Shown: piece after piece, positions 35,446-62,896 of the stretch | Numbering within the stretch: the first letter of the stretch is position 1 | Layout of the letters: each line of letters begins with the position of its first letter | Translations under genes and position numbers: made by a program | The notes under the pieces: generated by a model | What the model was told of the DNA's origin: nothing | Databases searched by the model: none | The model's input: only the letters and a program-made list of their open reading frames with translations | Assembly: GCA_043819555.1 (NCBI GenBank) | Contig: JBDREQ010000020.1 | Span: forward strand, 89,132-153,131 | Direction: 5' to 3' | DNA from: Candidatus Zixiibacteriota bacterium | Lineage (GTDB): Bacteria; Zixibacteria; MSB-5A5; GN15; JAAZOE01 | DNA length: 64,000 nucleotides

Positions 35446-35466
35446 CATGAGTTCGAATAGTGAGAA

Positions 35467-35496
35467 AATACCGCCTTTAGGGGCGGTATTTTTTTT
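35467..35496 (+). terminator. Intrinsic terminator
   Basis: AAATACCGCC-tttagg-GGCGGTATTT followed by a T run. Confidence 0.85.
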
Positions 35497-35580
35497 GGAT
35501 ATTAAGTTTTTGCTAAAATTGTCAATTATTTTTCTGTTTTTCCTCAGACAATAATTAATTCGAGTTTTCCATTCTGAAAG

Positions 35581-35771
35581 CGTTCAAAGTTTGAACAGTA
35601 GCAAAACCGCTATAAGTTATTACAGTATAATGATATAGGCGATAGGCGCAGTCAGGGTCAATTATATTTGTCGAGTAAACATACAGTTTCACAGGCCAAT
35701 TTTAAGCTAAAATTTTAAGTTGTTGATTATTAACAGTTTAAATGTTCGATTTAATTGGCATGGGTTTTGCT
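35581..35771 (+). promoter_or_regulatory. Sigma54 promoter with enhancer palindrome and IHF site (PEP-CTERM gene 2)
   Basis: CGTTCAA-AGT-TTGAACA (35581-35597); IHF AATCAACAACTTA on the minus strand (35716-35728); TGGCAT-GGGTT-TTGC (35756-35770). Confidence 0.8.
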
Positions 35772-35820
35772 AGTATTATAATTAAGTAAAATGAAAATAA
35801 AATATTTAAGGAGGCTAGTA

Positions 35821-42778: not shown

Positions 42779-42822
42779 AATTATTTTCCTTCCTTTATGT
42801 TTTATTCAAATCTCGGATGGAC

Positions 42823-45924: not shown

Positions 45925-45938
45925 TCGGCCAACTCCCC

Positions 45939-47054
45939 TCAATGCCCATGTCCGGCATGTCCGCCCAATGAACTGGTGACTAATTTGGCTTTCAATTCAA
46001 AGGCGCCATTGGCGACGTATTGTGCTCCCTGCTCGAGACCGGAGAGAACTTTTATATATTTGGAATCGTATTCACCGGTTTCAATGCGGGTTATTACAAA
46101 ATGCCCGGGACCTTCAGCGACAAAGACAACATTTTCGTTATCAAGAATCTGAACAGCATCTTTTTCGATTAACAGTCCGGGCTGTCCATAATCGGTTGTG
46201 ACAACGGCATGAACAAATGTTCCAGGACGCCACTTATTATTCGGATTGGGTAGCACCACCCGGGCAGTTATACTACGGGTATTGACATCAACGATGGGTG
46301 TGATGTATTCTATCGTTCCCTCTGCGTGAATATTAGAACTAATTGACTCGATGGAAACTTTCATATCCGGTTTTACGCGATCAGCATCCCTGGGATATAC
46401 CGCCAGATTAACCCAGACCGTCGATAAATCGACGATAACATAGATACTATTTTCGGCCGAAACGAATTCACCTTTGGAAATATGGCGCATAATTATCCAT
46501 CCCGAAATCGGGGATTTAATATTATATGCGCTCATGCTTTCATTGCTCTCAATTACAGCGAGAATATCACCTCCATTGGCGTAATCCCCGACAGAAAATC
46601 GAGCCTCGCGGGCAATACCCTCAAAACGAGGGGAGATGTGCACAACCTGATCTTCGTTGAATGTGATTTCCCCCGGAAGATTGAGGGAGTTGCCCAGGCG
46701 GCCTTTAATGACGGTTGAAATGCTTATGCCCGCCATTTCTATCGCCTCCTCGGTTAATTCAATGACTTCCTCATCTCCATGCTCATCATGCTCGTTGCCC
46801 TCAATTTGCTCCGCGGCATGGTCATGACCATCATCAACTTCATCGTCATAATCATCATCATGATGTTCCGGGTTCTCCCTCAATTCATTTTTCTTATGAT
46901 CGTCATCTTTTTTCTGATCATGCTTATGCTGGTCAGTTTGATTTTGGATAAAAGTTGTAGTATCGGTCAGGGACAGGGACCAAAATGCGAATGTCAGAGC
47001 GGTCACTATTAAAATCAGCCGAGATATAGATAATTTTGTTGATTTCATCTTCAT
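45939..47054 (-). CDS. czcB: CzcB-like membrane fusion protein with His/Asp-rich N-terminal insert
   Basis: HKHDQKKDDDH...HHDDDYDD...HDHA...HDEHG insert, DLSTVWV, WRPGTFV, C-terminal GHAGHGH. Confidence 0.9.
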   Translation of the reverse strand: MKMKSTKLSISRLILIVTALTFAFWSLSLTDTTTFIQNQTDQHKHDQKKDDDHKKNELRENPEHHDDDYDDEVDDGHDHAAEQIEGNEHDEHGDEEVIELTEEAIEMAGISISTVIKGRLGNSLNLPGEITFNEDQVVHISPRFEGIAREARFSVGDYANGGDILAVIESNESMSAYNIKSPISGWIIMRHISKGEFVSAENSIYVIVDLSTVWVNLAVYPRDADRVKPDMKVSIESISSNIHAEGTIEYITPIVDVNTRSITARVVLPNPNNKWRPGTFVHAVVTTDYGQPGLLIEKDAVQILDNENVVFVAEGPGHFVITRIETGEYDSKYIKVLSGLEQGAQYVANGAFELKAKLVTSSLGGHAGHGH

Positions 47055-47059
47055 ATCCT

Positions 47060-48385
47060 CTAGTTTTTTATGCTTTCAAGGGGAATGCCTATAGTTCTTT
47101 CCACTTCAATCTGCAGTTCTTTTATGTTTAGAAAGATATCATTTTTATCGAATCTTAGACCAATCAATGCACGTTTGCCTTCCAGGAGGCTTGTATAAGG
47201 GATGCGTCCGGCGTTGTATGCCTGTGTCAGGGATTCATAGGTTCTTTCTGCAGTGGGCAGGAGGAGGGAATCTATCATTTCCATTTTTTCATCCAACTGT
47301 ACTATCTTTCCAATTTGAGAACGAACGGTGGACGAGACTCTAGCTTTTTTATCATTTATCTCAAGGTCCAGCGCATTTATTTCGGCTTGAAGTCCGGCTC
47401 GCGCGCCCTGATTTCGATTAACGAAGGGGAGAGGCAGGGACAATCCCATAATGAAGGAGTTGGCTTTATCGCCCTGGAGACGCTTGATTCCCCCGCTGTA
47501 AGTTATGGCGGGATTTGCCTCGGCGCCAAGAAGTCGACTTTCCGAATCTATCATACCTCTTCGAAATATCATCTCCGTAATTTCTCTACTCGAATCGATA
47601 GAAATATCAAGCCCAGCGATATTTTTTAGACAATCATGTTTATCGATGCCGCAATTGGCGACAACAATGCCACTATCACTAGCGTTCCAAAGCGCCGATA
47701 ATTCCAGGCTTGCGTATTTTCGGTCGCATATGGCCTCGTTTAATTCCAGTTGGGCACTTTGCAATTCAAGTTGGGATAAGAGCAATTCAGATTGATGGAC
47801 TGCCCCAATCTTATTTCGATTCTCAATGTCACTTTGTATTGACTGTGATAACTCAAGCGCTTCCTGAGCCAGACATGCCTTATCCTGGGCATGAGTCAGG
47901 CGGAGATATCGCAATTTAGCGTCCAGAAATAAATCAAAAACCGATTTCTGATTGTTCCATCTTGTGTATTTTATGTTTGCCTGGGCATGTTGTTTCCGCG
48001 CCGCACGCTGTCCAAAAAGCTCAAATTTCTGCGATAGGATTATGGTCATTTCGGTTTCTTTGAAACCGGGAGCGTCCCACCCAAATTCCTCAAGTTCAAG
48101 ATTTAATTCAGGATTGAACCGAAGTCCGGCCTGACGCAGGTTCCCCTCGGATGATTCAAGATTCCATTTTAAAGATTTCAGGATTGGATTATTTTTCGCC
48201 ACAAGTCCTACAATATCATTGAGCGACAATGAATCGTAATTGACATGACGAGCATCCGCGTTCTCGAACGGCGACTGCCATTGAGCCGGGGATGAATCGG
48301 CAAAGGCCACACTTCCCATTAGCATCATGGCGACAGCGGCACAGCGGCATATCGCTCTTTTGTAAATTAGGTGTTTTAATCTCAT
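47060..48385 (-). CDS. czcC: TolC/CzcC-family outer-membrane efflux protein
   Basis: NNPIL...RFNPEL, SQKFELFGQRAAR, LSLPLPFVNRNQG, AYNAGRIPYTSLLE. Confidence 0.9.
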   Translation of the reverse strand: MRLKHLIYKRAICRCAAVAMMLMGSVAFADSSPAQWQSPFENADARHVNYDSLSLNDIVGLVAKNNPILKSLKWNLESSEGNLRQAGLRFNPELNLELEEFGWDAPGFKETEMTIILSQKFELFGQRAARKQHAQANIKYTRWNNQKSVFDLFLDAKLRYLRLTHAQDKACLAQEALELSQSIQSDIENRNKIGAVHQSELLLSQLELQSAQLELNEAICDRKYASLELSALWNASDSGIVVANCGIDKHDCLKNIAGLDISIDSSREITEMIFRRGMIDSESRLLGAEANPAITYSGGIKRLQGDKANSFIMGLSLPLPFVNRNQGARAGLQAEINALDLEINDKKARVSSTVRSQIGKIVQLDEKMEMIDSLLLPTAERTYESLTQAYNAGRIPYTSLLEGKRALIGLRFDKNDIFLNIKELQIEVERTIGIPLESIKN

Positions 48386-48493
48386 GAATAATTCCTTTGG
48401 TGTCTCTATTTGCCTTGTTGTAAGTGTGCTCGAAATATTTAGTTCAAGCACATTATACTAAGTCAGAGTTCTTAAATTTTGTTGAAGATAAAA

Positions 48494-48937
48494 TCAGCAA
48501 ATTAGGATAGATAATAATCCATAATTATCTATTCCGGGATCAATGAGGGGATTGGCAGAATTTATAAATTTGTCATAATCAGGATTACTTTTCAGGGAAG
48601 TATTAATCAATAAAGGAATTCCACAAGGATTTATTATGTCATTCAATAGTGATGCACCAATAATGGGAGCAGTTCTACTAAAACTATAAAACGCGATTAA
48701 CGGAATATCCGTGCAATTGCCGCAATCATGGGCACGCGATGATCCATGAATCGCGGGATTTCCGGGCGACAAATAAGTTGAACAATCGGTATGGCAGCAC
48801 GAATCCTTCGCCAACTCAATCTCGAATTGATTACTGCCTCCTACGCAGAGAACATCGCCGACACAGGATGCATAATTCGCCAGAAATAAGGCGGACAATA
48901 TGCCCCAACATATATAATCGCGGAACCGTTTCTTCAT
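48494..48937 (-). CDS. Cys/His-rich exported protein upstream of czcCBA (CzcI-like position)
   Basis: Hydrophobic N-terminus, VLC, CCHTDC, HDCGNCTDIP, C-terminal SILIC; TTGACA-16-TATATT promoter directly upstream. Confidence 0.6.
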   Translation of the reverse strand: MKKRFRDYICWGILSALFLANYASCVGDVLCVGGSNQFEIELAKDSCCHTDCSTYLSPGNPAIHGSSRAHDCGNCTDIPLIAFYSFSRTAPIIGASLLNDIINPCGIPLLINTSLKSNPDYDKFINSANPLIDPGIDNYGLLSILIC

Positions 48938-49166
48938 CGCGCCAATATAACAAAAAAATGGACTCTGTCAACCCCTGTTATGCAACTTGTTGAGGGGTAT
49001 GAGGCAAGTCGAAAAAAGCTGTAAATTTTAATCTTTTGAGTTTTTGAATTATGGTAATTTTTCACAGCTGCGCAGATTATTTGTAGTCAAGATGGGCTGT
49101 TTTCATCCTTTTAAGTATCCTTCTGGATCCTGATATTAGCGAAGGATATTCAAGGATATTCTTTGA

Positions 49167-49480
49167 GTCGCGCTCCTCGGTGATATCGGCCAGCTGGCGC
49201 CGAAGTTTTTGAACTTCCTCATCCGAGGCCTTCATCTTGCCCAAACCCGGAAAAGCTCCCCCGGGATCGGCCGCCAACTGCTTCTTCCAAAGATAAATCA
49301 CATTGACATGAAAACCAAGATCGCGAGCTATCTCGGTCGCTTTGCGACCGCCCTCGGTTACTAAACGAACTGCTTCAATCTTAAACTGACGGTCATATCG
49401 TCGCCTACGTTCCATTCAGACACCTCCTTAAGATATAAAATACACCTTAACTCCGTGTCCGTCAAATCGGGGGAAGGGCA
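49167..49480 (-). mobile_element. Truncated IS3-family element (left inverted repeat plus most of orfA)
   Basis: IRL-like TGCCCTTCCCCCGATTTGACGGACAC begins at 49480; orfA MERRRRYDRQFKIEAVRLV...IARDLG...LRRQLADITEERD breaks off before the usual ILKK frameshift window; no orfB. Confidence 0.85.
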
Positions 49481-49643
49481 ACTTGATACTTTGTTGAGGT
49501 ATGTCCTGTCAGGTTGCTCGAAGTAGCTAATGTGGGCACCGAGATCTTCGCCGCCATAAGGAAATTGCCAAGAATCAACGACTACTAATCATCTTAGCGT
49601 ACCGTGCCTTGATTCACGCAATCCCAAAAGGATCATATTCTGC

Positions 49644-49672
49644 TTGACAAATATAGTACTATCTCGTACTAT
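49644..49672 (+). promoter_or_regulatory. Sigma70-type promoter overlapped by a palindromic operator (probable MarR site)
   Basis: TTGACA-17-TACTAT with TAGTAC-tatctc-GTACTA spanning the spacer and overlapping the -10. Confidence 0.7.
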
Positions 49673-49710
49673 ACTATATAGAACTACCTAACTGGAAGGG
49701 CGAAGAAAAA

Positions 49711-50184
49711 ATGAGCGGTAATGATGCAAGACAGGATTGCCTTGAGTTAATGGAAGCAACTGATATTATGTACTTGTCAACTATCGGAGAAGGCGGTTTC
49801 CCTTACATAAGAGGCGTTATGAATCTAAGAAATAGCAAAAATTACCCCGACCTGGTCGAAGTATTTAACCAACATCGCAATGACTTTCAAGTGTACATTA
49901 CGACTAGAACATCCTCCAACAAGGTCAAACAAATCTCAGCCAATAATGCAGTCAGTGTTTACTATTGCGACCCTGGAAAATACCAGGGTTTAATGTTGGC
50001 AGGTCAAGCAGAAATTGTCTCAGATTCGAAAATGAAGCATAGGCTATGGCAGGATGATTGGAGAGCATTTTTCCCAGATGGCAAGAATGACCCCGACTAT
50101 TCGATCATTCGTATTAAACCCGCATTTGCACAAGGTTGGTGGGAGTCTGCAACCTTCAGATTCGAATTGGCTGGAAGAATATGA
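49711..50184 (+). CDS. Pyridoxamine 5'-phosphate oxidase-like FMN-binding protein (general stress protein 26 type)
   Basis: MYLSTIGEGGFPYIR, TTRTSSNKVKQI, GLMLAGQAEIV, LWQDDW..FFPDGKNDPDY. Confidence 0.88.
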   Translation: MSGNDARQDCLELMEATDIMYLSTIGEGGFPYIRGVMNLRNSKNYPDLVEVFNQHRNDFQVYITTRTSSNKVKQISANNAVSVYYCDPGKYQGLMLAGQAEIVSDSKMKHRLWQDDWRAFFPDGKNDPDYSIIRIKPAFAQGWWESATFRFELAGRI

Positions 50185-50623
50185 AGAAGCAACCTGAAGG
50201 CGGATTTCTGATAGGCAAGATACATCGACTGGCACAGAGGATACTCACAAGAAAACTCAAAGACTATCAAATCAATCTTATCAATCCAGCTCAGGGCGAA
50301 TAATGTTTGTGGTGTGGCGGAAAGATGGTCTTTCAATTAGCGATCTTGCCAGAGAGACATCTCTTGGCAAATCAACTTTAACAAGCATGCTCGACCGTCT
50401 GGAGAAAGCAGGTCATCTAAAACGCATTCCTTCGCAGGATGATCGTCGAAAACTGTTAATCAGGCGCACCAGGAAAGACAGGGCGGCTGAGGAAACATAT
50501 AAGGCGGTATCAAAGAAAATGACTAAGCTATTTTATAATGGTTTTTCGAAATATGACATTGATCAATTTGAAAGATACTTAAAAAGAGTATTAGACAATC
50601 TCACATCTTCTGATCAGCATTGA
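50181..50623 (+). pseudogene. MarR-family regulator split by a 1-bp deletion
   Basis: 50181-50303 reads MKKQPEGGFLIGKIHRL...INPAQGE*; 50303-50623 continues MFVVW..DGLSISDLARETSLGKSTLTSMLDRLE...DDRR. Restoring one base gives NPAQGRIMFV. Confidence 0.85.
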
Positions 50624-50699
50624 TATGATGTTTTTACTGCCGCACGAACTGTGTTATGTCTGATGTCTTATGAAGTTTATTTTCAGAAAGGAGTTATTC

Positions 50700-51308
50700 A
50701 TGGGTAAGGTAGGTCTTGTCAATAACATGAGTCGCAGGAAGTTTGTCGCTGCAATAATGCCTGCGTGCGGACTTTCATGTTTAGGTTTTGCAGATTTATT
50801 AGCAAGTGGAGGAACAGAAATGTCGGATCAGGAGGAACCCAAGATGCATAAATTTCAAAAGGACTATTGTCAAACCTATGAGAAGGCGTTCGAGTGGCGG
50901 TATGGATACTACATCGAATACATGGAACGGTTTGCCGAATATCTTGGCCGGGATAATTTAATCCGGATGATCAAACGGGCAGTCGACGATAGTAACCCGC
51001 CTGCCCAAACTGCCGACCCTGATTTTTCCTTTAGCAAATGGGTTAAGGGGGGCAAAGACGTATATAAGAATATGATGACTTGGGACATAGTTGAGGAATC
51101 GGAAACTGTCTACGAAATGAAGGTCTCGGAATGCCTATGGTGGAAGATATTCAAAGAACACAATGCTACCGATATAGGCTATGCGTCCGTTTGCTACACG
51201 GACTTCTCGTATTGCCGGATGGTTCATCCAAAACTTAGGCTGGAACGCACCAAGTCACTGATGGAAGGGCATGACTGCTGTAACCATCGCTGGATCTTTG
51301 AAGGCTGA
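50700..51308 (+). CDS. L-2-amino-thiazoline-4-carboxylate hydrolase-like protein with Tat-like signal
   Basis: SRRKFV twin-Arg-like leader; ECLWW, IGYASVCYTD, LERTKSLMEGHDCCNHRW. Confidence 0.8.
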   Translation: MGKVGLVNNMSRRKFVAAIMPACGLSCLGFADLLASGGTEMSDQEEPKMHKFQKDYCQTYEKAFEWRYGYYIEYMERFAEYLGRDNLIRMIKRAVDDSNPPAQTADPDFSFSKWVKGGKDVYKNMMTWDIVEESETVYEMKVSECLWWKIFKEHNATDIGYASVCYTDFSYCRMVHPKLRLERTKSLMEGHDCCNHRWIFEG

Positions 51309-51404
51309 GTTTCAATTGAAAGAGACCATATTGATTAGTGGCCGATGCGAAGGTGATTTGCCTGGAATACGGATCACGGATGATCTATATCAGGTCGTCG
51401 AGTG

Positions 51405-51564
51405 TCGGGTTATGAGCCTGTACAGAAGTCCAAATAGTAGAAAGCACCAGACACTAAGAGGCAATAATAGCAACAACTTAGCTTGAGCCTTTTGTCTGGT
51501 GTTTCTCTTATTATCTGGTGTTTTGGCTAATTCTGTTAGAAAAATGTTAGAAAGAGGTGTATGT
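51405..51564. repeat. 160-bp direct repeat, copy 1 (att-like; core matches tRNA-Met anticodon arm)
   Basis: About 10 differences by eye from 55809-55969; begins TCGGGTTATGAGCC (minus strand GGCTCATAACCCGA). Confidence 0.92.
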
Positions 51565-51762
51565 ATTCTTGGAGACTTATATCGACTAATGGCAGCGACA
51601 TTTTGTACTTCAGACACATAAAATTCCCAAATTATTGAATAACTCTATGATTTGCCTCCATTCATCTTGTTATTGATAAAATCCAATAATATATTATATT
51701 TAAACAGCTTAATGACTCTGGGAAACAGTCAGTGGCAATTAAGTTTATCCCAGGAGGTACAT

Positions 51763-54700
51763 ATGCTCAAGCGTTATCTATTATTTGTTTCAATAACAAT
51801 TTCACTTATTTTTGTTTTCATCGTTTCAAATGCTTTTGCCGAGCTGAAGGAGGAATGGCACATTCATTATACCTCCGAAGCTGACATCGAAGATTATGAG
51901 GTAGACCAGAATGGTAATATCTACCTGGTCGGGTGGGATCGGGAGCCTGGCAGCTGCACCGATTGGTTTATTCTAAGCTACGACGCCAGTGGCGAATTCA
52001 GATGGATGAAAACATATGATGGTCCGGACGATCCGGCCGTTGATTCTCTGAGTGACTCCCATACGGACGATGCATTGGAGGTGGAGATCGGACCCAATGG
52101 CATGATCTATGTCGCCGGCCGCTCATCAATATATATAGCAGGAAGCGAATACCCCGATGATCTGTACGGTTATCCCATGATCATTGGCTATTCATCCCTT
52201 GGTTCCCGTGTCTTTGAGGCGTTTCCTGAGGGAGACCCCGATGGCAATCTCGCCATGAACTACAACCAACACACCGATATGCTTGTAGATAACAACGGCT
52301 TCGCTCATTTCAATTTTGGCGGCGTGGCGATCTCTACTCAAGCGGGAGAGGCTACATTCTTGTATGATACCGACGAGATCAGTAATGGGGCTTTTAAGAA
52401 GTGGCATTCTCTACTGGGTGTGGATGGAGTCGGCAACAACTACTACGCAGGATATGATAATACGGACGAGGGTAGATTCGCCGGCCTAGTAAAACTGTCC
52501 CCATTTGGGGGGGTTGTGTGGAAGACGATGACGGACCTGGGCATACGATCATGGTGCATGGCCGTGGATCATATCGGCCATGCATATGTCACAACCAGTA
52601 CAACACTGACTTATACAGGCGGACTGATACACAAGTTCGGTCTGGGAGGCGGTATTGAATACAGTATACCGGTGCCGTTGGACCAGGCTATTTATCAGAT
52701 GAAGTGCGATAATGCCGGTCATTTGATAATAAACGTGCAAGGACATCTCTATGTCTACTTATCTGACAACGGTGCCCTTCTGTGGGACGTGCCCAACGCG
52801 TACTTTTTCCAATTGGGGCCGGAGGGCGACATCTATGTATCAGGCATTAACGGTGAGACGGCCCGCAGGTTCAAACCCGACGGCACCATGCTATGGAGAG
52901 CCAGTGACATTACTCTATATAACGGGGATAATATTTATCAATCCCAATTCCGAGTAGCCGAGAATGGCTGCATCTATCAGGCAGGATTTGGGGGAAGCGA
53001 AATATGGATAGAGAAACTCTCCCAGCCAAAAGTTTTCACAATCAAAGATATCAACAACGACACGATTCCGTACGCTAAATTTACGATGATGAAGGTCACC
53101 AACGATAAGCCGGATTACACCGAAGACACGCTTGGTACGTTTGAAACCGATTCACTGGGCAATTTCCTGTGTGACTATCTTGGCGTTGACAGTTTTCTCT
53201 TTGTAACTGATGAATATGATATTGAACCGGATACTATCGTAATCGGCGATACTCTTAAATTCTCTCGTTTGGTAACCGACTTAGCCGCAGTGAAGCACTC
53301 CAGTGGGTTAGGGACAATGTACAGTCTACATCTGGACAATATCAAGTTCGATGAATTGGGCGCACTTGAGTTCGACACCCTTGATGGTGTGCGGCAGGAG
53401 ATCTTTATGGATCACACCGAAATCCGCTATAACCTTCTGGTCTCGGTCGAGTGGGATGCGTCATGGTGGTATCTGGCCGGTTTGCAGGAGAATTTCCGTA
53501 GCATGTCGAATTACCTGTACGATGTCACCGATGGTCAGATGCGCGTGGATACGGTAATGATTTATGACAACGCCGACCACTGGCTGGAGGCCGATATATG
53601 GAGATACGCCAGCAATATGGAGCATGCGCGGGCCAATGCAAATGGAATATACAGGGTCAACGATGGCAAAGTGTTCATGCCCCGCATATGGTATTATGAT
53701 GTTAGAAACCGCAGTTACTACGACCATCCGATAGACATCGATGAACCAATTGATTACCGTACCCAAGCACACGAGTTTGGCCATTACGCCTTGGATTTCT
53801 ATGATGAATACTTGTATCTGGATCCAACCGATCCCGATTCTGGATCGTTCGTGAACGATCCTTCTCTCCGCTGCCCTCAAGTTGCCATGTACGGGTTCAT
53901 GCAAAGTCAGTTTCCGGGCGCCGATCCGTACCGATCTGAAATGTCGAGTATTCTTCACTATCAGGAGACCGCTTGTAAGAACACCGTGCAGTTCAGGCTG
54001 AACAATTCGTCCTGCTGGGATCATCTGGAGTCTATGTTTGAGCGTCTCTACGAAGCGGACACTTTTTACGTGCCGATCATCATGGCCACCGATTCGGCTC
54101 GGGCCTCGTACCCCGGTTCACCTTACTGCCCGGGTCCGAACAATGACCTGATCAGCGCCGATGCGCTTGACTACGACGTCGGCGCCAAGATCGTGTTCCC
54201 GATCTCACCATCCTCGCCCGCCGTCGGCATAATGGATGTCGACGCGGAGATCCGGCAGGGAGGGAAGCTCGTGCCCAACGCCGAGGTTGATCTCTACAAA
54301 CCTAACATTGATATGACCTGGCGTACAATCAAGCAGGGGAAGACGGCTGACAACGCGAGGATCATAGTCCTTGGGGCAAAGGCCGGTGACGAGATACGGT
54401 CGGGTGGAACCAGAATTGTGTTGACCAAATCAACGCAGGCTACTCAGGAGGAGTGGCTCTACGGTTCAGCGGTTGTGGATAGCGACAGTCTGACTGTTGA
54501 TCTGGCGGCGGTTGACGGTTATTTCCCTATGATATGCGAAGTGGTCTTGAGCGATACTTCCGGAACGTACCGCCTGGTAAATCAGACTGATTTCCCGTTG
54601 GAGCCGTCATTGATTTATCGACCATCAGGTGGCGGCGAGTATGCTTACGGCCCGACTTCAATTACTGATGGATATGAAGTCTTTATCGAGGAACGTTCTG

Positions 54701-55512
54701 GTATTTATGGAACAATCACAGTTGAAGCTGAAGATAATTCAGCCAATAACTTCTTTTTTATAAATGATTACACTTTTGCAGAATTTACGCCCGGCGCTGC
54801 GAAAATCGAGTTATTTGGACCTTCGGGTGGGTCACAGATTCTCTTTAATGATAGCAACGAGACTATGGAACAGGCAATGTTCCTGAGTTCACCTTATACA
54901 ATAATTAGAACCGGTTTGACAGAAGCCAATATCCAGGCGAGTAAGACTCACTGCTTATCGGTCTATCCCAATGATGCCATGACTGGCAACGGTCTCTTCC
55001 GAGTCCTTTATTCGGAGGCCGATATTATTCAACGGGGCGGGTCTGCGGATGATGAAACTTCATTAAAAATATTCAGGTGGGCCGATGCGACCACCGGCTG
55101 GCAAGAGGTCGGTGGCTCAGTTGACACAGTCTTCAATCAGGTGGTCGAGACAGTCTCGGAACCGGGCGTTTACGCCGCCTTCACGACCGATGCTTCGGTT
55201 GATGTCGATGACGAATGTGGAGACAACTTGCCGTATCGGTTCGAGCTGTCACAGAATTACCCAAACCCATTCAATCCTGTGACGACTATAAGTTACAGTT
55301 TGCCGAGGAAATCGGCTGTTTCAATTGAGATATTTAATATCCTTGGACAGAAAGTCAAAACGCTGATTGATGAGACCAAACCGGCCGGTGATTATCAGAT
55401 AACTTGGGATGGTAATGATTCCAATGGCGCTAAAGTCTCAACAGGTATTTATTTCTACCGCTTTCAGGCTGGAGATTTTGTCGAAACGAAGAAGATGATA
55501 CTCTTGAAATAA
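51763..55512 (+). CDS. Secreted multidomain protein: beta-propeller, CLCA-like HExxH metalloprotease and FlgD/T9SS-type C-terminal domain
   Basis: AGGAGG RBS and signal peptide; VDQNGNIYLVG-type blades; SNYLYDVTDGQMR, AHEFGHYALDFYDEY, SCW; C-terminal LSQNYPNPFNP...STGIYFYRF...KKMILLK. Confidence 0.85.
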   Translation: MLKRYLLFVSITISLIFVFIVSNAFAELKEEWHIHYTSEADIEDYEVDQNGNIYLVGWDREPGSCTDWFILSYDASGEFRWMKTYDGPDDPAVDSLSDSHTDDALEVEIGPNGMIYVAGRSSIYIAGSEYPDDLYGYPMIIGYSSLGSRVFEAFPEGDPDGNLAMNYNQHTDMLVDNNGFAHFNFGGVAISTQAGEATFLYDTDEISNGAFKKWHSLLGVDGVGNNYYAGYDNTDEGRFAGLVKLSPFGGVVWKTMTDLGIRSWCMAVDHIGHAYVTTSTTLTYTGGLIHKFGLGGGIEYSIPVPLDQAIYQMKCDNAGHLIINVQGHLYVYLSDNGALLWDVPNAYFFQLGPEGDIYVSGINGETARRFKPDGTMLWRASDITLYNGDNIYQSQFRVAENGCIYQAGFGGSEIWIEKLSQPKVFTIKDINNDTIPYAKFTMMKVTNDKPDYTEDTLGTFETDSLGNFLCDYLGVDSFLFVTDEYDIEPDTIVIGDTLKFSRLVTDLAAVKHSSGLGTMYSLHLDNIKFDELGALEFDTLDGVRQEIFMDHTEIRYNLLVSVEWDASWWYLAGLQENFRSMSNYLYDVTDGQMRVDTVMIYDNADHWLEADIWRYASNMEHARANANGIYRVNDGKVFMPRIWYYDVRNRSYYDHPIDIDEPIDYRTQAHEFGHYALDFYDEYLYLDPTDPDSGSFVNDPSLRCPQVAMYGFMQSQFPGADPYRSEMSSILHYQETACKNTVQFRLNNSSCWDHLESMFERLYEADTFYVPIIMATDSARASYPGSPYCPGPNNDLISADALDYDVGAKIVFPISPSSPAVGIMDVDAEIRQGGKLVPNAEVDLYKPNIDMTWRTIKQGKTADNARIIVLGAKAGDEIRSGGTRIVLTKSTQATQEEWLYGSAVVDSDSLTVDLAAVDGYFPMICEVVLSDTSGTYRLVNQTDFPLEPSLIYRPSGGGEYAYGPTSITDGYEVFIEERSGIYGTITVEAEDNSANNFFFINDYTFAEFTPGAAKIELFGPSGGSQILFNDSNETMEQAMFLSSPYTIIRTGLTEANIQASKTHCLSVYPNDAMTGNGLFRVLYSEADIIQRGGSADDETSLKIFRWADATTGWQEVGGSVDTVFNQVVETVSEPGVYAAFTTDASVDVDDECGDNLPYRFELSQNYPNPFNPVTTISYSLPRKSAVSIEIFNILGQKVKTLIDETKPAGDYQITWDGNDSNGAKVSTGIYFYRFQAGDFVETKKMILLK

Positions 55513-55537
55513 CGGAATTTTTAATTAAGAACATATG

Positions 55538-55563
55538 GGACAGAGTAAAAATCTGTCCCTTTT
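55538..55563 (+). terminator. Intrinsic terminator
   Basis: GGGACAGA-gtaaaaa-TCTGTCCC followed by TTTTT. Confidence 0.8.
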
Positions 55564-55775
55564 CTTTGTCCATAAAATCCCAATAGATTCTTATTGTTAG
55601 AACATAGTTAGAAAATCAGAGATTTATGCAATTGTCAGAATATACTTAGCGACCCAACGCGTTGAATTTCATGTGCATAGAATTGACTGATTGAATTCAT
55701 GACCTTCGGGCTGGTAACCTTAACAGAATTTGGGTGCCATGATGGCGTGTAACTTGTTGTATAATAACCGGTTAT

Positions 55776-55822
55776 TTGTAACGGGGGCAGGGTTTGAACC
55801 TGCGACCTTCGGGTTATGAGCC
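55776..55822 (-). other. 3' half of an initiator-type tRNA-Met (att-site fragment, not a full tRNA)
   Basis: Minus strand GGCTCATAACCCGAAGGTCGCAGGTTCAAACCCTGCCCCCGTTACAA: CAT anticodon loop, T-arm GGTTCAAA, acceptor 3' strand; no D-arm or 5' acceptor strand upstream. Confidence 0.88.
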
Positions 55823-55969
55823 TGTACATTAGTCCAAACAGTAGAAAGCACCAGATATTAAGAGGTAATAATAGCAACAACTTAGCTTGAGCCTTTTGTC
55901 TGGTGTTTTCTCTTATTATCTGCTGTTTTGGCTGATTATGTTAGAAAAATGTTAGAAAGAGGTGTATGT
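55809..55969. repeat. 161-bp direct repeat, copy 2 (att-like)
   Basis: Matches 51405-51564 and overlaps the tRNA-Met fragment. Confidence 0.92.
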
Positions 55970-55973
55970 TAAA

Positions 55974-56306
55974 ATGGATAACAATAGCCCAGTTAAAGAA
56001 GACGATGAACATATTGAGAATCGCCAGCCTATATACATCCCACACATAAAAGAACGATTCGAATTCGAGATTCATTATAGACTTGTTATCATTTCCTTGC
56101 CGATCCTTATGGTTGGCATCTTTTCAAGTAATTACATAAACACTGTCATAGGTATCATAGCCGGAATCATCTCGGCACTATTATACAGGTATTATGCTTC
56201 AATGCCGATCGAGTTTGAGGAATTCTCATCTAAAAGAACAAATGCTAATTCGAACGGGGATTCTGATATGTTTTTGAAGAAACTCAACGATTCGGTAGAG
56301 AACTAA
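55974..56306 (+). CDS. Small hypothetical protein with two TM helices
   Basis: LVIISLPILMVGIF and VIGIIAGIISALLY hydrophobic segments; followed by a terminator. Confidence 0.55.
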   Translation: MDNNSPVKEDDEHIENRQPIYIPHIKERFEFEIHYRLVIISLPILMVGIFSSNYINTVIGIIAGIISALLYRYYASMPIEFEEFSSKRTNANSNGDSDMFLKKLNDSVEN

Positions 56307-56336
56307 GTGAGGCAATAAGATATTAAGTAGCAATTG

Positions 56337-56364
56337 GGAGCTGTCATCTTACAGCTCCTTTTTT
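56337..56364 (+). terminator. Intrinsic terminator
   Basis: GGAGCTGT-catctt-ACAGCTCC followed by a T run. Confidence 0.8.
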
Positions 56365-56473
56365 CTTATAGAATCTTGCCTTTTTAGGCAATTGATAATC
56401 TCCTCCAAGAATCTAAGCTGGAATGTGAATGAATCAAACATAGCACATTCACAATCCAAACCAGGAGGTTATC

Positions 56474-57547
56474 ATGCCTACAAATCTGTATGATGCACAT
56501 CGGCAATGGGCTTCGCGCCCGCCGGATGAACGATTCAGTAGTCTTGAGACTCTACAGAGTTTCACCGATGCTCGCAAAAGCTCTTCTATCGAAGCAGAGC
56601 GAGTTCTGAAAATGGTTGATCTAAAGGTATTGCCGGGAGGATCAATCGCAGTGAACGGCAATTCACCGCCTGCCGATTTATCGAATTGGGCATTTGGACA
56701 ACTTTGCTATTCAGTCGGAGCACCGGCCAAATATCTTCGCACACTTCCGGCTGATATGGCTAGAGATTGCCTATCACACGGACTCGGCAAGTCAGGACAA
56801 CGCTGCAAATTGCTTCTAAGAGAGAATTCTGAGGATTCCGATACTCAACCCCAGAGGACGGCCTCTGCCTTCACAGGACCCAATTATGGGCGAATTTGGG
56901 ACGCAGACGTGGTTCAACAGATCACCGAGGCAACTCAGAATAGCGGCTGGCATACCCCACCTTCCGAATCAATGACCGGATCGGAAAACAGTGGTCTTTA
57001 CGCTTCCGACAGGGATATGTTTATTTTCATGGTAAACGACGAGAATCAGGTAGAAATAGGCAATGCCAAGCTTGGCCGAGGATTCTTTTGCTGGAACTCC
57101 GAAACTGGAGCCGCCAGCTTCGGACTGACTACTTTCCTCTACAACTATGTGTGTGGTAATCACATTGTTTGGGGGGCCGAGGAAGTCCGTGAAATACGGA
57201 TAGTTCACAAAGGCGAAGCTCTTGACCGTTTTCACAACCTTGCCTTACCCCGGCTGAATCAGTTTGTCGAGAACCAAGCCTACGACGATACGGTCAAAAC
57301 CACCGTGTCACGAGCAATGTCAGAGTCAATTGCCAACGACTTGGAAAAGACTCTGGAATGGTTCAAAGACAAGCCGTTCACCAAATCCGAGGTTAAGAAT
57401 GCCTGGGAAACTGGAATCGCCGAAGAAAACGATGTGACCACAGTTTGGGGAATGGTTCAGGGGCTGACGGCCTCTGCCCGATCACTTCCATACACAAATT
57501 GGCGTGTCAATCTCGAACGCCGGGCTGGCACCCTCTTAAACCTCTAG
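56474..57547 (+). CDS. DUF932-family (phage/plasmid-associated) protein
   Basis: QWASRPPDERFSSL, WAFGQLC..VGAPAKYLRTLPA, YGRIWD, LYASDRDMFIF, RGFFCWNSETG, YVCGNHIVWG; AGGAGG RBS. Confidence 0.8.
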   Translation: MPTNLYDAHRQWASRPPDERFSSLETLQSFTDARKSSSIEAERVLKMVDLKVLPGGSIAVNGNSPPADLSNWAFGQLCYSVGAPAKYLRTLPADMARDCLSHGLGKSGQRCKLLLRENSEDSDTQPQRTASAFTGPNYGRIWDADVVQQITEATQNSGWHTPPSESMTGSENSGLYASDRDMFIFMVNDENQVEIGNAKLGRGFFCWNSETGAASFGLTTFLYNYVCGNHIVWGAEEVREIRIVHKGEALDRFHNLALPRLNQFVENQAYDDTVKTTVSRAMSESIANDLEKTLEWFKDKPFTKSEVKNAWETGIAEENDVTTVWGMVQGLTASARSLPYTNWRVNLERRAGTLLNL

Positions 57548-57562
57548 AATCGCACCTTCCAC

Positions 57563-57593
57563 AAGAGCTTGAATAAACTTCAAGCTCTTTTTT
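57563..57593 (+). terminator. Intrinsic terminator
   Basis: AAGAGCTTGAA-taaac-TTCAAGCTCTT followed by TTTT. Confidence 0.8.
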
Positions 57594-57699
57594 AATACCA
57601 ATATAGTCTGGTATTAAGATGTTTCTCTTGCCTTTTTGACCACATTTTAGTTATATTTGTAACAATTTCAATCCCATCAGAAACGAGATTGAGGTATTT

Positions 57700-57870
57700 A
57701 TGCCAAGAAAGAAATTGCCGGAAAAGCGGGAGCGGATGATTCACATTCGACTTACTGATGATCTACATAAGAAGCTGAAGATCGAGATAGCTGAGAAATG
57801 CCAGACTATACAAGATTGGGTTACTGAGTCAATCGAGATTCGACTTTCTAAGAGCAAAAGAATCAAGTAG
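57700..57870 (+). CDS. Small ribbon-helix-helix DNA-binding protein (56 aa, not in the ORF track)
   Basis: GAGGT RBS; MPRKKLPEKRERMIHIRLTDDLHKKLKIEIAEKCQTIQDWVTESIEIRLSKSKRIK*, with an RHH strand-helix-helix pattern. Confidence 0.75.
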   Translation: MPRKKLPEKRERMIHIRLTDDLHKKLKIEIAEKCQTIQDWVTESIEIRLSKSKRIK

Positions 57871-57886
57871 GGGTGTCTAGTTCAAT

Positions 57887-60800
57887 ATGAATTCTGTAAG
57901 CGACAAAGCGATTAGACTCTTTACCTACCTGAAAGAGTTATCGAAGCTCCGAACAACGCATACAAAGGATGTTGCAAAGTACGATGAAGTTCTTTGGTTT
58001 TCGGATATTCCAAAGGAAAAACACTGCCATTGTATAGCATGGGATTTGTGGAGCCAGACAGAAGATGAAAAAGAGAGGGCAAAGGATATTTGGATTGAAG
58101 TTCACAAACCAAATTTGAAAAGTCCTCCTGAGGTTCCGGATGAATTGGAGCAGTGGATCAAAGATAATGAAGTATCTGACTCTGCTTTCGAGGAACCTGG
58201 ACTGCGTGATAAAATCACAATTACTACCGACTCTGATCCTGAAACAGGTGAGGAGATAACAGAGGTTCTCGCCTTAGATGACCATGCCAACATTTTCGAA
58301 CTGTGGATGAAGTATACAGACGAAAAATGGAAACCGTGGGCTGAGGAAGATAGACGACTTCAGAAAATCCAAGACGTTTACAATAGACTATATACTATCT
58401 ACCAAAGATCAGAAAAACTTGGTGAGCAGTATGAGGTCATAGTAGGTCTTGGCTTCCTACTTTGGCATTCGCCCAAGAGTGGCGAAGTACGTCATCCGCT
58501 GCTGTCAATTCATGCAAGGGTCAGTTTTGACAGCGTGAGAGGCATTATGAGTGTCTCTCATTCAATAGATGGACCACTGCCAAGGCTTGAGATAGATATG
58601 CTAGAAAATGAGGATCGTCCGAGCGTTAAGGATCAGCAGGGAATTCAGGAAATGGTAGATGAGCTTGACGGTGAACCCTGGCAGGGGTCTGCTCTAGAGG
58701 CCGTATTGAAATCACTTGCTAACGGTATCTCCACCAGAAGTAACTATGATAGAAGTATGTCGAAGCCTTCTACCATATCGGATGCCCCGCAGCTCTATTT
58801 GTCCCCCACTTTGATTCTTAGAAAGCGTACGCGAAGATCCTTCGTTGATTTCTATAGCAAGATTGTGGAACAGCTTGAGGATGGTGGTGAAGTTCCAGAT
58901 AGTGTGCGGGTCTTGGTGGAGATTATAGATAATGAAAGACAGCCCGAAGAAAGTGAACCTCATGCACACCCGCCAACAGTAGTTGGCAGCGACAGCGAAC
59001 TGTACTTTCCTCTCCCTTCCAATGATGAACAGAAACAGATTGCGGAGCGAATAGAGAATAACCGTGGTGTATTAGTCCAAGGGCCACCTGGAACAGGAAA
59101 ATCTCAAGCAATTGCGAATCTAGTCGCTCACTCACTCGCAAAGGGAAAGCGGATACTAGTTACAAGTGAAACTCCTCGAGCTCTGGAAGTGCTTTCGGAA
59201 ATGCTCCCAGAGGAGATCAGAGAATTGTGTGTCATGTGGTTGGGTTCAGGGCCTAAAGCTCAGGAATCGCTTGAGCGGTCAGTTCAAGGTATAACTCAGC
59301 GAAAGATTAATTGGGATTCCAATCATACAAGTAGAAATCTGGATGACTTAAGAAAACGATTAGATCAGATACGTAAGGACCAGGCAAAACTTCGAGGAGA
59401 CCTTACTGCTTGTCGCGAGGCCGATACCTATCGTCACACCAGTATTTGTGATAGCTATAGTGGAACATTGGAGAAGATTGCTGTTCAGATTAACGCCGAT
59501 AGGAGTAAATTTGAGTGGTTCATAGACCGACCAAGTCCTAATAAAGCAAATAGTATCACAACATCTGTTCTCATTGAACTCCTTGAGACCGACAGAATGA
59601 TGACAGATGATCTGAAGCGCGAGATCAAGATGCGGCATTTGACTATGGACGACTTGATTCCGCCTTCTCAATTCACAGTTCTATCTGACTCCGAAAAGGA
59701 AGCCCTTGATTTCCATGCGGGTATAGAACACAAAAGGAATTATCCAGGATACGAATCGTTAAAAGGGTTAAGTCCTAAGACAAGGATGCGGTTGCTCGAC
59801 CTGTCGAAAAGCCTAGTCAGTTGCATGGATGAACTAGCAAAGCATATTCACAGTTGGGTTGATCGTGCCGCACGTGAGATTGCTGCTGATCAAGACAGAG
59901 TGTGGCGACATTTACTTGAATTAACAGACCAACACATGAAAGAACTTTCAGATAGGTGTCAAGACGTTTCTACACTACGCATTGTAGGCTTAGAAGGTCT
60001 TGACTACACCGATGTAGCACTTCAGGCAAATTCTCTCAAGGAACATCTCGAAAGTGGTAAAGGATTGAGATACCTTGGGTTATTTAAGACTAAAGTTGTT
60101 AAAGATGCTTGGTATTTAGTAAAATCAGTTCGTGTAGAGGGAGTACCTTGTAAGTCTATCGCTACTCTCCAACGATTAATTGAGTGGCTCAACTATGATA
60201 GGCTACTAGGCCAATTGGATGATCAATGGAAAGCATATACCACTCCACCTGATGGCAATTATGCAACAAGGATTGCAGCTTACCAAGACTTATGTGAACC
60301 TCTCCGAGATGCAATAGAGATACATCCCACCGTACAGGAATTGAAGAACATCATTTCTCAGCACACGGGCGTGTTTTCGCCACACTGGCATTTGAGAGAC
60401 GAAGTAGAATCTCTGTGCGACGCCTTGGAAGCAGTGGAAAGCGATGAGAAGCTCCGCGCTGCGACTAATGAATTTGATCCCCTAGAACACAAAGTTTCAG
60501 AAACTGTGAAATACGATGATGCCCATCCAAATACACAGTTGATCCTCGATGCTATTCGTGAACGAGATAGGGTCAAGTATGAGCAGGCATATGAAGCGAT
60601 TAAGAGTATTGGTGACCTGATAAAGAGGTATGAAGTCACGAGAGAGACTTTACAACATTTCATCGACTTCACGCCAAAAACGGCTTCAGAGTATAAGAAC
60701 ACATTTAGTGAAGCCATTTGGGAGAACCGATTCAACACATTCCAGATGGCTTGTAACTGGGCAGGAACAGACCGCTGGTTGACTGAAATGTGCAGTGAGA

Positions 60801-62788
60801 ACCGTGCTGCTGAACTTGGAACGATGCTTGAGCAATGTGAAATTGATGAACGCAAAATCTTAAAAGAAATGGCAGCCCAAAAGTCGTGGCAACATTGCAT
60901 GAGAGGTTTAGGAGAGTTCGAAAGGCAAGCATTGATTGCTTGGATGCAGGCTGTGAAGAAAATTAGAGGTGGAACAGGCCGTCATGCAGAACGAAATCGT
61001 GAAGAAGCTAGGCGTAAATTAGTAGAATGTAGAAGTGCTATCCCTGCATGGGTTATGCCCTTATATCAAGTAGTTCAAACTACGAGCCCCGAAAAAGGGC
61101 TTTTCGATCTTGTTATTATCGATGAAGCCAGCCAATCTGGTCCGGAAGCTATTTTGCTTAACTATATTGGAACTAAGATTGTAGTAGTCGGAGATGACAA
61201 ACAAATTGCACCAGTTCACGTAGGAGTCAATCGTGATGATGTCACTCGACTCCAAGAGATGCATCTTAAGGAGATACCTCATAGAGAGTCATTCGATTTG
61301 GAAGGCAGTTTTTTCTCTCAAGCAGAACTGCGTTTTCCGGGTAGAGTTCGCCTGAGAGAGCACTTTCGCTGTATGCCAGAAATAATTCAATTCTCAAACC
61401 GTCTGTCATACAGTAGCGAGCCACTTATCCCTCTGCGTCAGTATGGTGCAGACCGCTTAGAACCTTGTAAGGCAACTCATGTTTCACATGGTTATCGTAC
61501 TGGGAAGTCCCCGAACATTGAAAATAGACCAGAAGCAGAAGCCATAGTTGAACAAGTGGTTCAATGCTTGGAGGATTCAGCGTATGAGGATAAGAGCTTC
61601 GGAGTTATTAGTCTTCTAGGAAATGCACAGACCACACTGATAGCAAAGCTTCTTATGAAAGAGGTTGGTGCTGACGAAATGGAAAACCGAAGACTGTTAT
61701 GCGGTAGCCCCTACGATTTTCAGGGAGATGAGCGAAATGTAGTATTTCTGAGCATGGTTGATGCTCCACAGGACGGTAGAACATGTCGCATGGTCCGTGA
61801 CTCTGAGACCCAGCGAAGGTTCAATGTAGCTGCTAGCCGAGCTAAGGATCAACTATGGCTGTTTCACTCTCCAACACTAAATGATCTTCGGACTGAATGT
61901 CTGCGTTATCGCCTATTGGAGCATTGTCTTAATCCAACAGTAGAACAAACACGGGTAGGTGATTATGATATTGATGAGCTTAGAAGACTAGCAAAAAGTG
62001 AAAGACGAGACCGAGTAAAGCCACCTGAACCCTTTGATAGTTGGTTTGAGGTTGATGTCTTCTTGAGAATCGTGGAACGAGGTTATCGCATTATACCCCA
62101 ACATGAAGTAGCAAATCGCAAGATTGACCTTTATGTTGAAGGGCTAAAAGGTGGACTGGCCGTCGAGTGCCATGGAGATAAGTGGCATGGTCCGGATCGG
62201 TTTAATAAGGATATGGAGCGAAAGCGACAACTAGAGAGATGTGGATGTAGATTCGCAATCATATGGGGAAGTCAGTTCTATCGCCATCCAGCCATAGCAC
62301 TTCAACCTCTTTGGGAGGAACTGGATAGACTTAAAATATATCCAGAACATAGATGGGAAGAAGAGAAACACAAGAAAGAGTTGCTAACCGCAAGTATGGC
62401 GGGTGATTCTTACGATGACAGCGATATGGATGATAATGGCAAGAACTATCGTGGCGATAATGTAAACAGCACAAATAAGAGAGATCATCCAGACCTGTTT
62501 CCACACAACGGCAATCATAAGGGTAAACGACATTCAAAGAGTATTTCGGCTAGTTTGATTCAAAACGGCATTATATCAGCACTTGAGCGATGTCCTCATA
62601 ATACGTGTACCACAAAATCTCTGACTAAACGTGTTCTAAAGGAGCTTGGCATTATAACCCGTGGCAATCCACGCTTGGAACTCGAGAAAAGGGTAAAACG
62701 AAACGTTGGAGTTTTGGTTCAAAAAGGTCAGGTCCAAGAATATAAAGCAAAGAACAATAGATTACGACTCCTGAAAAAAGGAACTTAG
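57887..62788 (+). CDS. UPF1-like SF1 helicase fused to a Vsr/DUF559-like nuclease and a C-terminal winged-helix-like domain; candidate anti-phage protein
   Basis: GPPGTGKS, IIDEASQ, VVGDDKQ, EHFRC, FQGDER, RFNVAASRAK; nuclease FDSWFE...IDL...LAVECHGDKWHG...RQLERCG. Confidence 0.88.
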   Translation: MNSVSDKAIRLFTYLKELSKLRTTHTKDVAKYDEVLWFSDIPKEKHCHCIAWDLWSQTEDEKERAKDIWIEVHKPNLKSPPEVPDELEQWIKDNEVSDSAFEEPGLRDKITITTDSDPETGEEITEVLALDDHANIFELWMKYTDEKWKPWAEEDRRLQKIQDVYNRLYTIYQRSEKLGEQYEVIVGLGFLLWHSPKSGEVRHPLLSIHARVSFDSVRGIMSVSHSIDGPLPRLEIDMLENEDRPSVKDQQGIQEMVDELDGEPWQGSALEAVLKSLANGISTRSNYDRSMSKPSTISDAPQLYLSPTLILRKRTRRSFVDFYSKIVEQLEDGGEVPDSVRVLVEIIDNERQPEESEPHAHPPTVVGSDSELYFPLPSNDEQKQIAERIENNRGVLVQGPPGTGKSQAIANLVAHSLAKGKRILVTSETPRALEVLSEMLPEEIRELCVMWLGSGPKAQESLERSVQGITQRKINWDSNHTSRNLDDLRKRLDQIRKDQAKLRGDLTACREADTYRHTSICDSYSGTLEKIAVQINADRSKFEWFIDRPSPNKANSITTSVLIELLETDRMMTDDLKREIKMRHLTMDDLIPPSQFTVLSDSEKEALDFHAGIEHKRNYPGYESLKGLSPKTRMRLLDLSKSLVSCMDELAKHIHSWVDRAAREIAADQDRVWRHLLELTDQHMKELSDRCQDVSTLRIVGLEGLDYTDVALQANSLKEHLESGKGLRYLGLFKTKVVKDAWYLVKSVRVEGVPCKSIATLQRLIEWLNYDRLLGQLDDQWKAYTTPPDGNYATRIAAYQDLCEPLRDAIEIHPTVQELKNIISQHTGVFSPHWHLRDEVESLCDALEAVESDEKLRAATNEFDPLEHKVSETVKYDDAHPNTQLILDAIRERDRVKYEQAYEAIKSIGDLIKRYEVTRETLQHFIDFTPKTASEYKNTFSEAIWENRFNTFQMACNWAGTDRWLTEMCSENRAAELGTMLEQCEIDERKILKEMAAQKSWQHCMRGLGEFERQALIAWMQAVKKIRGGTGRHAERNREEARRKLVECRSAIPAWVMPLYQVVQTTSPEKGLFDLVIIDEASQSGPEAILLNYIGTKIVVVGDDKQIAPVHVGVNRDDVTRLQEMHLKEIPHRESFDLEGSFFSQAELRFPGRVRLREHFRCMPEIIQFSNRLSYSSEPLIPLRQYGADRLEPCKATHVSHGYRTGKSPNIENRPEAEAIVEQVVQCLEDSAYEDKSFGVISLLGNAQTTLIAKLLMKEVGADEMENRRLLCGSPYDFQGDERNVVFLSMVDAPQDGRTCRMVRDSETQRRFNVAASRAKDQLWLFHSPTLNDLRTECLRYRLLEHCLNPTVEQTRVGDYDIDELRRLAKSERRDRVKPPEPFDSWFEVDVFLRIVERGYRIIPQHEVANRKIDLYVEGLKGGLAVECHGDKWHGPDRFNKDMERKRQLERCGCRFAIIWGSQFYRHPAIALQPLWEELDRLKIYPEHRWEEEKHKKELLTASMAGDSYDDSDMDDNGKNYRGDNVNSTNKRDHPDLFPHNGNHKGKRHSKSISASLIQNGIISALERCPHNTCTTKSLTKRVLKELGIITRGNPRLELEKRVKRNVGVLVQKGQVQEYKAKNNRLRLLKKGT

Positions 62789-62896
62789 GGTGGTCAATCA
62801 AACAAATACAGTTTACATTACCGTCAGGGAATTATGGCACTACGGCGATGAAATTCTGAAAGTGTATGATGTGTAATATTTGAAAGGTGGTAATAT

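Follow-up and report, generated by a model that had tools for sequence, protein, structure and literature searches.

The window analysed here, 64,000 nt from the 3.35-Mb genome (G000) of a Candidatus Zixiibacteriota bacterium, ends on the right with contig C20 and carries near that end a 4.4-kb cassette. The cassette holds a single secreted-protein gene, has no integrase and is bounded on both sides by a core from the anticodon arm of tRNA-fMet. It probably belongs to a tandem row of units that the tyrosine integrase of an integrative and mobilizable element (IME) assembled at the tRNA-fMet gene; the front of this IME lies on contig C6 of the same genome. The evidence comprises the anatomy of the cassette, an integrase located at the tRNA gene, the occurrence of the same arm at the ends of IMEs, many integrase-less units in related genomes and, in a unit shared by two genomes, a sharp drop of identity across the anticodon loop.

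Anatomy of the cassette and its attachment-type sites

A sequence-only reading of this DNA had described two repeats of about 94% identity around 4.4 kb with one large gene and a terminator. When the two copies (51405-51564 and 55809-55969) were compared, 151 of 161 bases were the same (93.8%; BLAST E value of 1e-64 against the 3.35-Mb genome), and a profile search recovered these two as the only full copies in the genome. A single long open reading frame (ORF; frame 51652-55512) and a terminator were confirmed between them. Both repeats open with a 14-bp core from the anticodon arm. The genome has three copies of this core, two in the cassette joints and one inside an intact tRNA-Met gene (C6:4911-4987), in agreement with the proposed start at the anticodon arm of an initiator tRNA-Met. 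By inspection, position 1:72 of the C6 tRNA is unpaired and its anticodon stem has three G-C pairs at the base, features that we take as marks of an initiator tRNA.

The right repeat leads into a tRNA 3' half on the minus strand. The sequence-only reading had called this half full; it is present but imperfect, with CAA for the terminal CCA and one change in the acceptor stem. Its T-stem is that of the tRNA-fMet allele of G001, G002, G029 and G036 and differs from the C6 tRNA by paired changes. In the left repeat no tRNA follows the core, as had been noted, but the non-tRNA half of the left site turned out to belong to the next cassette leftward and not to the 4.4-kb one. Neither ARAGORN nor Rfam gave a match within the window. 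No remnants of integrase, relaxase or coupling-protein genes were detected in 49401-55960 when eight IME proteins were searched (best E value 0.03).

The cassette thus appears to retain site elements at both ends: the P arm and core at the left end and, at the right end, the P' repeat followed by the tRNA half with its core (Table 1). Within the P arm, the inverted pair CACCAGACA/TGTCTGGTG and the direct repeat GTTAGAAAAATGTTAGAAA were the best-conserved columns among 44 aligned arms and are likely to be protein-binding sites, a putative role judged from conservation. A second core-like stretch in the P' arm, TGACCTTCGGG, is possibly a further breakpoint. As a separate observation, an inverted copy followed by the first DUF932 codons was seen behind this stretch in G001 and G003 (L036:6407-6526; L037:7155-7277).

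The left site was compared with a related locus through the neighbouring unit, a third cassette with PNPOx-like, MarR and ATC_hydrolase genes. In G053, a genome of another family, this cassette lies between two P arms, with 86.5% identity over 1,930 nt. The G053 copy starts just past the arm and stops in the same half-site, after which a different arm and different cargo follow. Identity to G053 was 86.1% for the cassette body and 89.5% over the final 105 nt on the half-site side; all 7 loop positions agreed, and the value fell to 68.8% within the P arm, with the flanking host antiporter gene (66.6%) as the yardstick. Because G053 carries the same half-site and identity drops at the loop, the bare left core appears to have been inherited with the third cassette, and the two genomes to have joined this cassette to different partners at the loop. 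The identity break at this point supports, at the level of sequence, the earlier proposal of attachment (att) sites with a crossover in the anticodon loop. Local decay of the left site to its core was considered and rejected, since G053 has the same half-site. When the donor context of the half-site was searched for in 285 genomes, G053 was recovered together with att-less paralogues in G000, G001, G220 and G112, in which the likeness stops at or before the stop codon.

The probable neighbouring IME and integrase-less units in related genomes

The sequence-only reading had placed a sister island with a shared att arm beside the cassette and had suggested a search for a tyrosine integrase and an intact tRNA-fMet gene. 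Both were found on contig C6 of the same genome. The integrase contains phage-integrase SAM domains, is directed at the intact tRNA-fMet gene and overlaps its 3' end. Behind it lie genes for a coupling protein, a Replic_Relax (PF13814) relaxase and RuvC-like, HTH and Phage_rep_O proteins; the C6 element has its own integrase, relaxase and coupling protein (matches to PF00589, PF13814 and TrwB/TraG). Integrases of this clade were present in 10 of 61 genomes (E<=1e-40), seven of them near full length and three truncated, and in all ten genomes the gene ends at tRNA-Met.

The P arm immediately to the right of the cassette, that of the proposed sister island, matches the ends of complete IMEs in G029 and G036. 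In these genomes the whole element lies on a single contig (~27 and ~31 kb, respectively) and is closed by this P arm and the tRNA half. The G029 element also has, at the matching place, a DUF932 gene 57% identical to that of the window (56474). In G002 and G011 the distance from tRNA-fMet to PEPCK is ~52 and ~40 kb, in an orientation that would join C6 to the end of C20. From these observations we infer that C6 and window positions 55823-64000 represent opposite ends of a single IME.

The sequence-only reading had also suggested a search for additional att copies around other cargo, and many relatives proved to have them. After internal reverse-strand self-matches of the arm had been removed, 71 P-arm matches were counted in 38 fetched segments from 23 genomes, segments that had been picked for matching and include kin that are not independent of one another. 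The tRNA half was present in 35 matches and lacking in 22, an upper bound since the pattern also takes some truncated or insertion-bearing halves; the other 14 were partial or at an edge. At least 57 of the 71 begin at the core. Arms were 90-97% alike between families, with the integrase sequence past the arm entirely lost.

Internal units (n = 33) measured 0.9-8.0 kb, with a median of 2.3 kb. None of the 33 contained the catalytic part of the two tested integrases, a screen outside which serine recombinases fall, and seven retained the last 23-42 integrase codons. In the first set examined, an integrase tail was found in 9 of 29 tRNA-half joints, its start no more than 27 nt from the GTTAGAA repeat. 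A single ORF was present in 15 of 28 units, and 48 of 64 ORFs ran from P to P'. The loop was perfect in 12 of 19 non-tRNA joints, several of which had an altered stem. Cargo varied across rows and included secreted proteases, FG-GAP and lectin-domain proteins, a catalase, an AbiEii system and metal efflux. A unit of ~0.9-1.0 kb, with a PALP enzyme in G050, was common to G028, G030, G038, G040 and G050, all of one family (73-80% identity). The proposed array on a tRNA-type att site was supported, with the units of a row bounded by tRNA-core joints.

An empty unit of ~270 bp was found in G001 (L030:3120-3389; C44) and consists of core, P arm, a single GTTAGAA repeat, integrase-tail arm, tRNA half and core. 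It resembles a micro cis-mobilizable element (microCIME) and suggests a deletion between two GTTAGAA repeats. A scan of species genomes with the arm pattern gave 17 stretches, titled 10 Zixibacteria, 3 "bacterium", 3 Ignavibacteria and 1 Phycisphaerae, which are depositor labels and carry no claim of spread across phyla.

Some joints showed features of their own. A short hairpin at the variable loop of the tRNA half, with paired stem changes, was seen in G001, G004, G030, G041, G049 and G053 (loci L030, L023, L027, L031, L036, L136 and L138); if used in integration, such a half would lend tRNA-fMet a long variable arm. Hairpins like repetitive extragenic palindromes were present within the tRNA halves of several joints of G053, G045 and G050 (L031:3700-3800, L032, L040). 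Two G001 arrays (L030:2650-3120 and L033:7040-7460) begin, with no tRNA, at a common end resembling an insertion sequence (IS). This end is accompanied by what looks, by eye, like the tail of an integrase and a half-site resembling a tRNA. Host genes that lie side by side on contig C28 of the window genome are split across two G001 contigs at the starts of these arrays.

Proposed assembly of the row, rival explanations and known systems

Units of the row could arise in two ways. An IME would lose the interior between its arms, often back to the GTTAGAA repeats, or the integrase would join a P arm to a chance core-like half-site beside foreign genes. A newcomer, whether unit or IME, would enter at the intact tRNA, bring a fresh 3' half and shift older units outward; each joint would then pair the P arm of the nearer unit with what the farther unit supplies, a tRNA half or a bare half-site. 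The integrase of a visiting IME could cut at any two joints, and units might leave with the IME or as circles of their own and swap neighbours. Here the order would be tRNA-fMet, IME, protease cassette, the PNPOx-MarR-ATC cassette (its left arm presumably lost to an IS) and possibly an efflux block. Mobilisation along with the neighbouring IME accounts for the data as well as the mobilisation of the protease cassette in trans does.

A wider idea, which we regard as possible but doubtful, is that Zixibacteria maintain a common pool of singly mobile cassettes on the tRNA-fMet arm, captured at chance 12-bp half-sites by the integrase of visiting IMEs and shuffled in trans across families. Such a pool would be integron-like with no resident integrase, and parallel arrays would exist at tRNA-Ser and other RNA genes with the same GTTAGAA repeat.

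Several results weigh against a row built by the neighbouring IME. The C6-C20 junction is unassembled, C6 ends in a repeat common to three other contig ends, and no excisionase was identified. The P' arm of the cassette has the GTTAGAA repeat alone in common with integrase-tail arms, which speaks against direct descent from the IME, and with a tRNA half that lacks CCA the cassette may be immobile today. No second copy of the protease cassette was found in 251 genomes, where the top cargo homologue was 44% identical, and none of 19 loci of cargo homologues had an att site within ~1.1 kb downstream (upstream was out of range). The third cassette was whole in 2 of 285 genomes, namely the window genome and G053. 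No clean empty site was found; the tRNA-PEPCK interval of G002 has no P-arm match, but it holds different genes. In 15 of the 23 arm-bearing genomes there was no match to the C6 integrase at E<=1e-40, which fits transient visits and equally inert relics. The selection of segments and the relatedness of genomes noted above bear on all arm counts.

It is unlikely that the protease cassette is an inert relic, left by deletion from an older island, with joints that mark past integrations of whole elements and have been static since the integrase was lost. Such a remnant would suit the imperfect tRNA half and divergent P' arm, the single copy of the cassette, the integrase genes next to the tRNA that are truncated in 3 of 10 genomes, where decay is under way, and the 14 partial or edge matches of the arm, but it sits poorly with a third cassette that has the same two ends and different neighbours in two families, with the PALP-type unit common to five genomes, and with arms that have stayed so alike across families though the integrase beyond them is gone.

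We consider it still less probable that the row is the integron-like platform of a resident recombinase (the integrase on contig C53, or Xer) and not of a visiting IME. It is the C6 clade, not the C53 enzyme, that sits at tRNA-Met in all ten genomes, the integrase tails in the cassettes are of C6 type, and the P arm has no top-scoring promoter while the cargo has its own candidates. These findings stand against a TTAGAA-type repeat immediately ahead of the start codon of the C53 recombinase, a 32%-identical relative adjoining a non-tRNA joint in G011, the predominance of co-oriented cargo ORFs and one-ORF units, and the tRNA-Ser array of the same genome, which has the same repeat and no integrase seen nearby. 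The C53 enzyme itself (L011:9211-10239) is a second tyrosine recombinase, cut by the contig end and 25% identical to the C6 enzyme.

A local duplication, or an IS-mediated or homologous rearrangement with the tRNA piece there by chance, would suit the two genome copies and an IS remnant 1.9 kb off but is highly improbable, being contradicted by window arms that are each 97% identical to an arm of another genome and 94% to one another, and by an arm family spread over 23 genomes and starting mostly at the core.

Integron arrays, based on attC and IntI, consist of short, mostly co-oriented and often one-gene cassettes that change neighbours, and the Zixibacteria units are alike in all these respects. 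Unlike integron cassettes, they are joined by long att sites of tRNA type, and the cargo comes with a terminator and promoter-like sites of its own. No IntI with attI was seen beside the row (no IntI profile was run); the adjacent enzyme is of phage-integrase type, and its gene overlaps the end of the tRNA. Nor was attC seen at the cassette ends (no attC model was run), which are tRNA-core joints with 150-bp arms. The row is not an integron.

The row probably represents a tandem accretion of integrase-less units like cis-mobilizable elements (CIMEs). The suggestion of an undescribed kind of system was not supported, as CIMEs, microCIMEs and the ssrA rows of Dehalococcoides have been described before and the accretion of integrase-less units is known as a class. 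In the accounts of PMC5704250 and PMC7563491, streptococcal CIMEs have att sites at both ends, lack integration and transfer genes and lie in tandem with integrative and conjugative elements (ICEs) or IMEs. Units there measure 1.2-13 kb with cargo or 130-220 bp without (microCIMEs), and CIMEs lie farthest from the target gene with an intact IME nearest, IMEs with a PF13814 relaxase included. Likewise, the window cassette has no integrase, relaxase or coupling-protein gene and has att-type sites at both ends. As regards descent by deletion, its P arm is of the family of the IME, and the resemblance of its P' arm to the integrase tail is confined to the repeat. For tandem position, the evidence is the G029 and G036 elements and the tRNA-PEPCK linkage in G002 and G011, with the assembly broken in the window genome. 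Unlike the composites of S. salivarius, for which these accounts give two or three elements, the G053 row has seven arm matches within 13.7 kb. Many Zixibacteria joints also differ from streptococcal CIMEs in that the P arm meets a bare half-site and the tRNA half is lacking, one half-site unit occurs in two families with different neighbours, and the phylum is uncultured.

As described in PMC3146451, ssrA islands of Dehalococcoides lie several in tandem behind one RNA gene, and 15 of 31 lack an integration module and were proposed to be cis-mobilisable. The target there is the transfer-messenger RNA (tmRNA) gene, with the serine recombinase DsiB and a 20-bp repeat, whereas the window has the tRNA-fMet anticodon loop, a tyrosine integrase and a 150-bp arm. 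The Islander account (PMC4383910) includes an anticodon-centred subsite A with an intact tRNA, a displaced 3' fragment, a tyrosine integrase and an attP of ~250 bp. The anticodon-loop crossover proposed here resembles this subsite, a likeness of sequence only. Islander, in that account, demands an integrase for each island and a tRNA end fragment, and units of the window type and core-only joints would be rejected. Tycheposons of Prochlorococcus, as presented in 10.1101/2020.12.28.424599, are transient at tRNAs (one of them tRNA-Met), shift older DNA outward and leave partial tRNAs. In that description their islands are mostly flanking or degenerated DNA, whereas sharp conserved arms and a helper with relaxase and coupling protein were found here. 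Secondary att sites and tandem ICE arrays are reported in PMC5812530. What sets the Zixibacteria rows apart from these published systems is their greater length, the similarity of the arms across families and an arm-plus-half-site unit common to two families. A literature search, with supplements outside its scope, found nothing on such elements in Zixibacteria.

These results name an enzyme, a target and a site anatomy for accessory-gene traffic in an uncultured phylum. Island finders that depend on integrases and tRNA ends overlook such units. If a P arm with a 12-bp half-site suffices for re-integration, it would provide a one-step route of gene capture.

Cargo gene, other features of the window and other arrays

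The probable start of the cargo gene is the ATG at 51763, preceded by AGGAGGT (51752-51758). A promoter scan placed all top scores outside the P arm, and the cargo carries candidate promoters of its own. Members of the cargo family occur in 51 of the 251 genomes searched from the phylum; the window genome has paralogues on C10 and C76, and the nearest relative is 44% identical. The H, E, G and H residues and the DEY of the motif were invariant in 20 aligned sequences. Comparison with PDB sequences gave nothing useful. Structure models reached a predicted local distance difference test score of 30 from the single sequence and 69 from the alignment; fold matches of the alignment-based model were weak, nearly all to zinc proteases and none at E<=0.001, and an Atlas match to CLCA (0.87) is a lead only. 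The motif, the C-terminal domain and these weak fold matches suggest that the product is likely a secreted zinc metalloprotease.

Table 1. Positions of the cassette, its sites and the neighbouring features in the window
Position	Strand	Feature	Remarks
42143..48937	-	RND/MFP/OEP heavy-metal-type efflux block	Without remaining att site
49077..49480	-	IS remnant (HTH_Tnp_1)	Located where G053 shows the P arm of the third cassette
49481..51418	+	Third cassette: PNPOx-like, MarR and ATC_hydrolase genes	Ends in a non-tRNA half-site, the left side of the left core
51405..55822	.	Integrase-less one-gene cassette of 4.4 kb, from core to core	P arm, cargo gene, terminator, P' arm, tRNA 3' half
51405..51418	-	Left 14-bp core (tRNA-fMet anticodon arm)	Loop 51410-51416, inferred 7-bp overlap; identity break against G053 at the loop
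51419..51564	.	P arm of the cassette	CACCAGACA (51445-51453) and TGTCTGGTG (51493-51501) form an inverted pair
51535-51553		Direct repeat GTTAGAAAAATGTTAGAAA within the P arm	
51763..55512	+	Cargo gene, 1,249-aa secreted-type protein	Pfam; HEFGH..DEY motif, C-terminal FlgD_ig / Por_Secre_tail domain
55537..55559	+	Intrinsic terminator behind the cargo gene	Scores on either strand
55596..55775	.	P' arm of the cassette	Direct repeat GTTAGAA at 55596-55614
55700-55710		Second core-like stretch TGACCTTCGGG in the P' arm	~100 bp off the core; homology to P' arms of G001, G003, G045 and G050 stops there
55776..55822	-	Displaced tRNA-fMet 3' half, including the right core (55809-55822)	CAA replaces CCA
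55823..55969	.	P arm of the adjoining element, probably the right end of the IME	GTTAGAA repeat 55940-55958; G029 and G036 elements end so
55970..64000	+	Inferred distal part of the IME	Pfam; DUF932 likeness to G029
55962-56306		Small ORF, inferred distal IME part	
56474-57547		DUF932 gene, inferred distal IME part	
57887-62788		Helicase with MTES_1575 nuclease domain, inferred distal IME part	
62897 to contig end		AAA_15 ATPase, inferred distal IME part	

The IS remnant is presumably of IS3 type, from its HTH_Tnp_1 family link. Efflux blocks akin to that of the window adjoin P-arm matches in G001, G029 and G034, and the window block is possibly an older unit of the row.

A second and larger joint family in the window genome consists of the tRNA-Ser(TGA) 3' end and the GTTAGAA repeat (C79:55-142, C23, C36, C29, C46, C55 and C62; loci L001-L005, L007 and L008). 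BLAST gave 11 matches in the genome, and one to three in each of 7 of 60 relatives. One unit of this array is a whole operon of 10.4 kb that encodes a NiFe-hydrogenase and its maturation proteins; others hold a DUF4412 and CsgG-OmpA pair and a Na/H exchanger-TrkA gene. No integrase for it was seen in the contigs examined or in 12 loci of ~3 kb. On C79 (L008:275-302), a second tRNA- or tmRNA-like T-arm fragment lies ~130 bp behind the tRNA-Ser(TGA).

Elsewhere in the window, a perfect 23-bp direct repeat with a spacing of 43 bp lies between convergent ORFs (25430-25495). Two tandem PEP-CTERM genes (34723-36441; 213 and 216 aa), 74-86% alike, were found with a repeated AT-rich upstream stretch.

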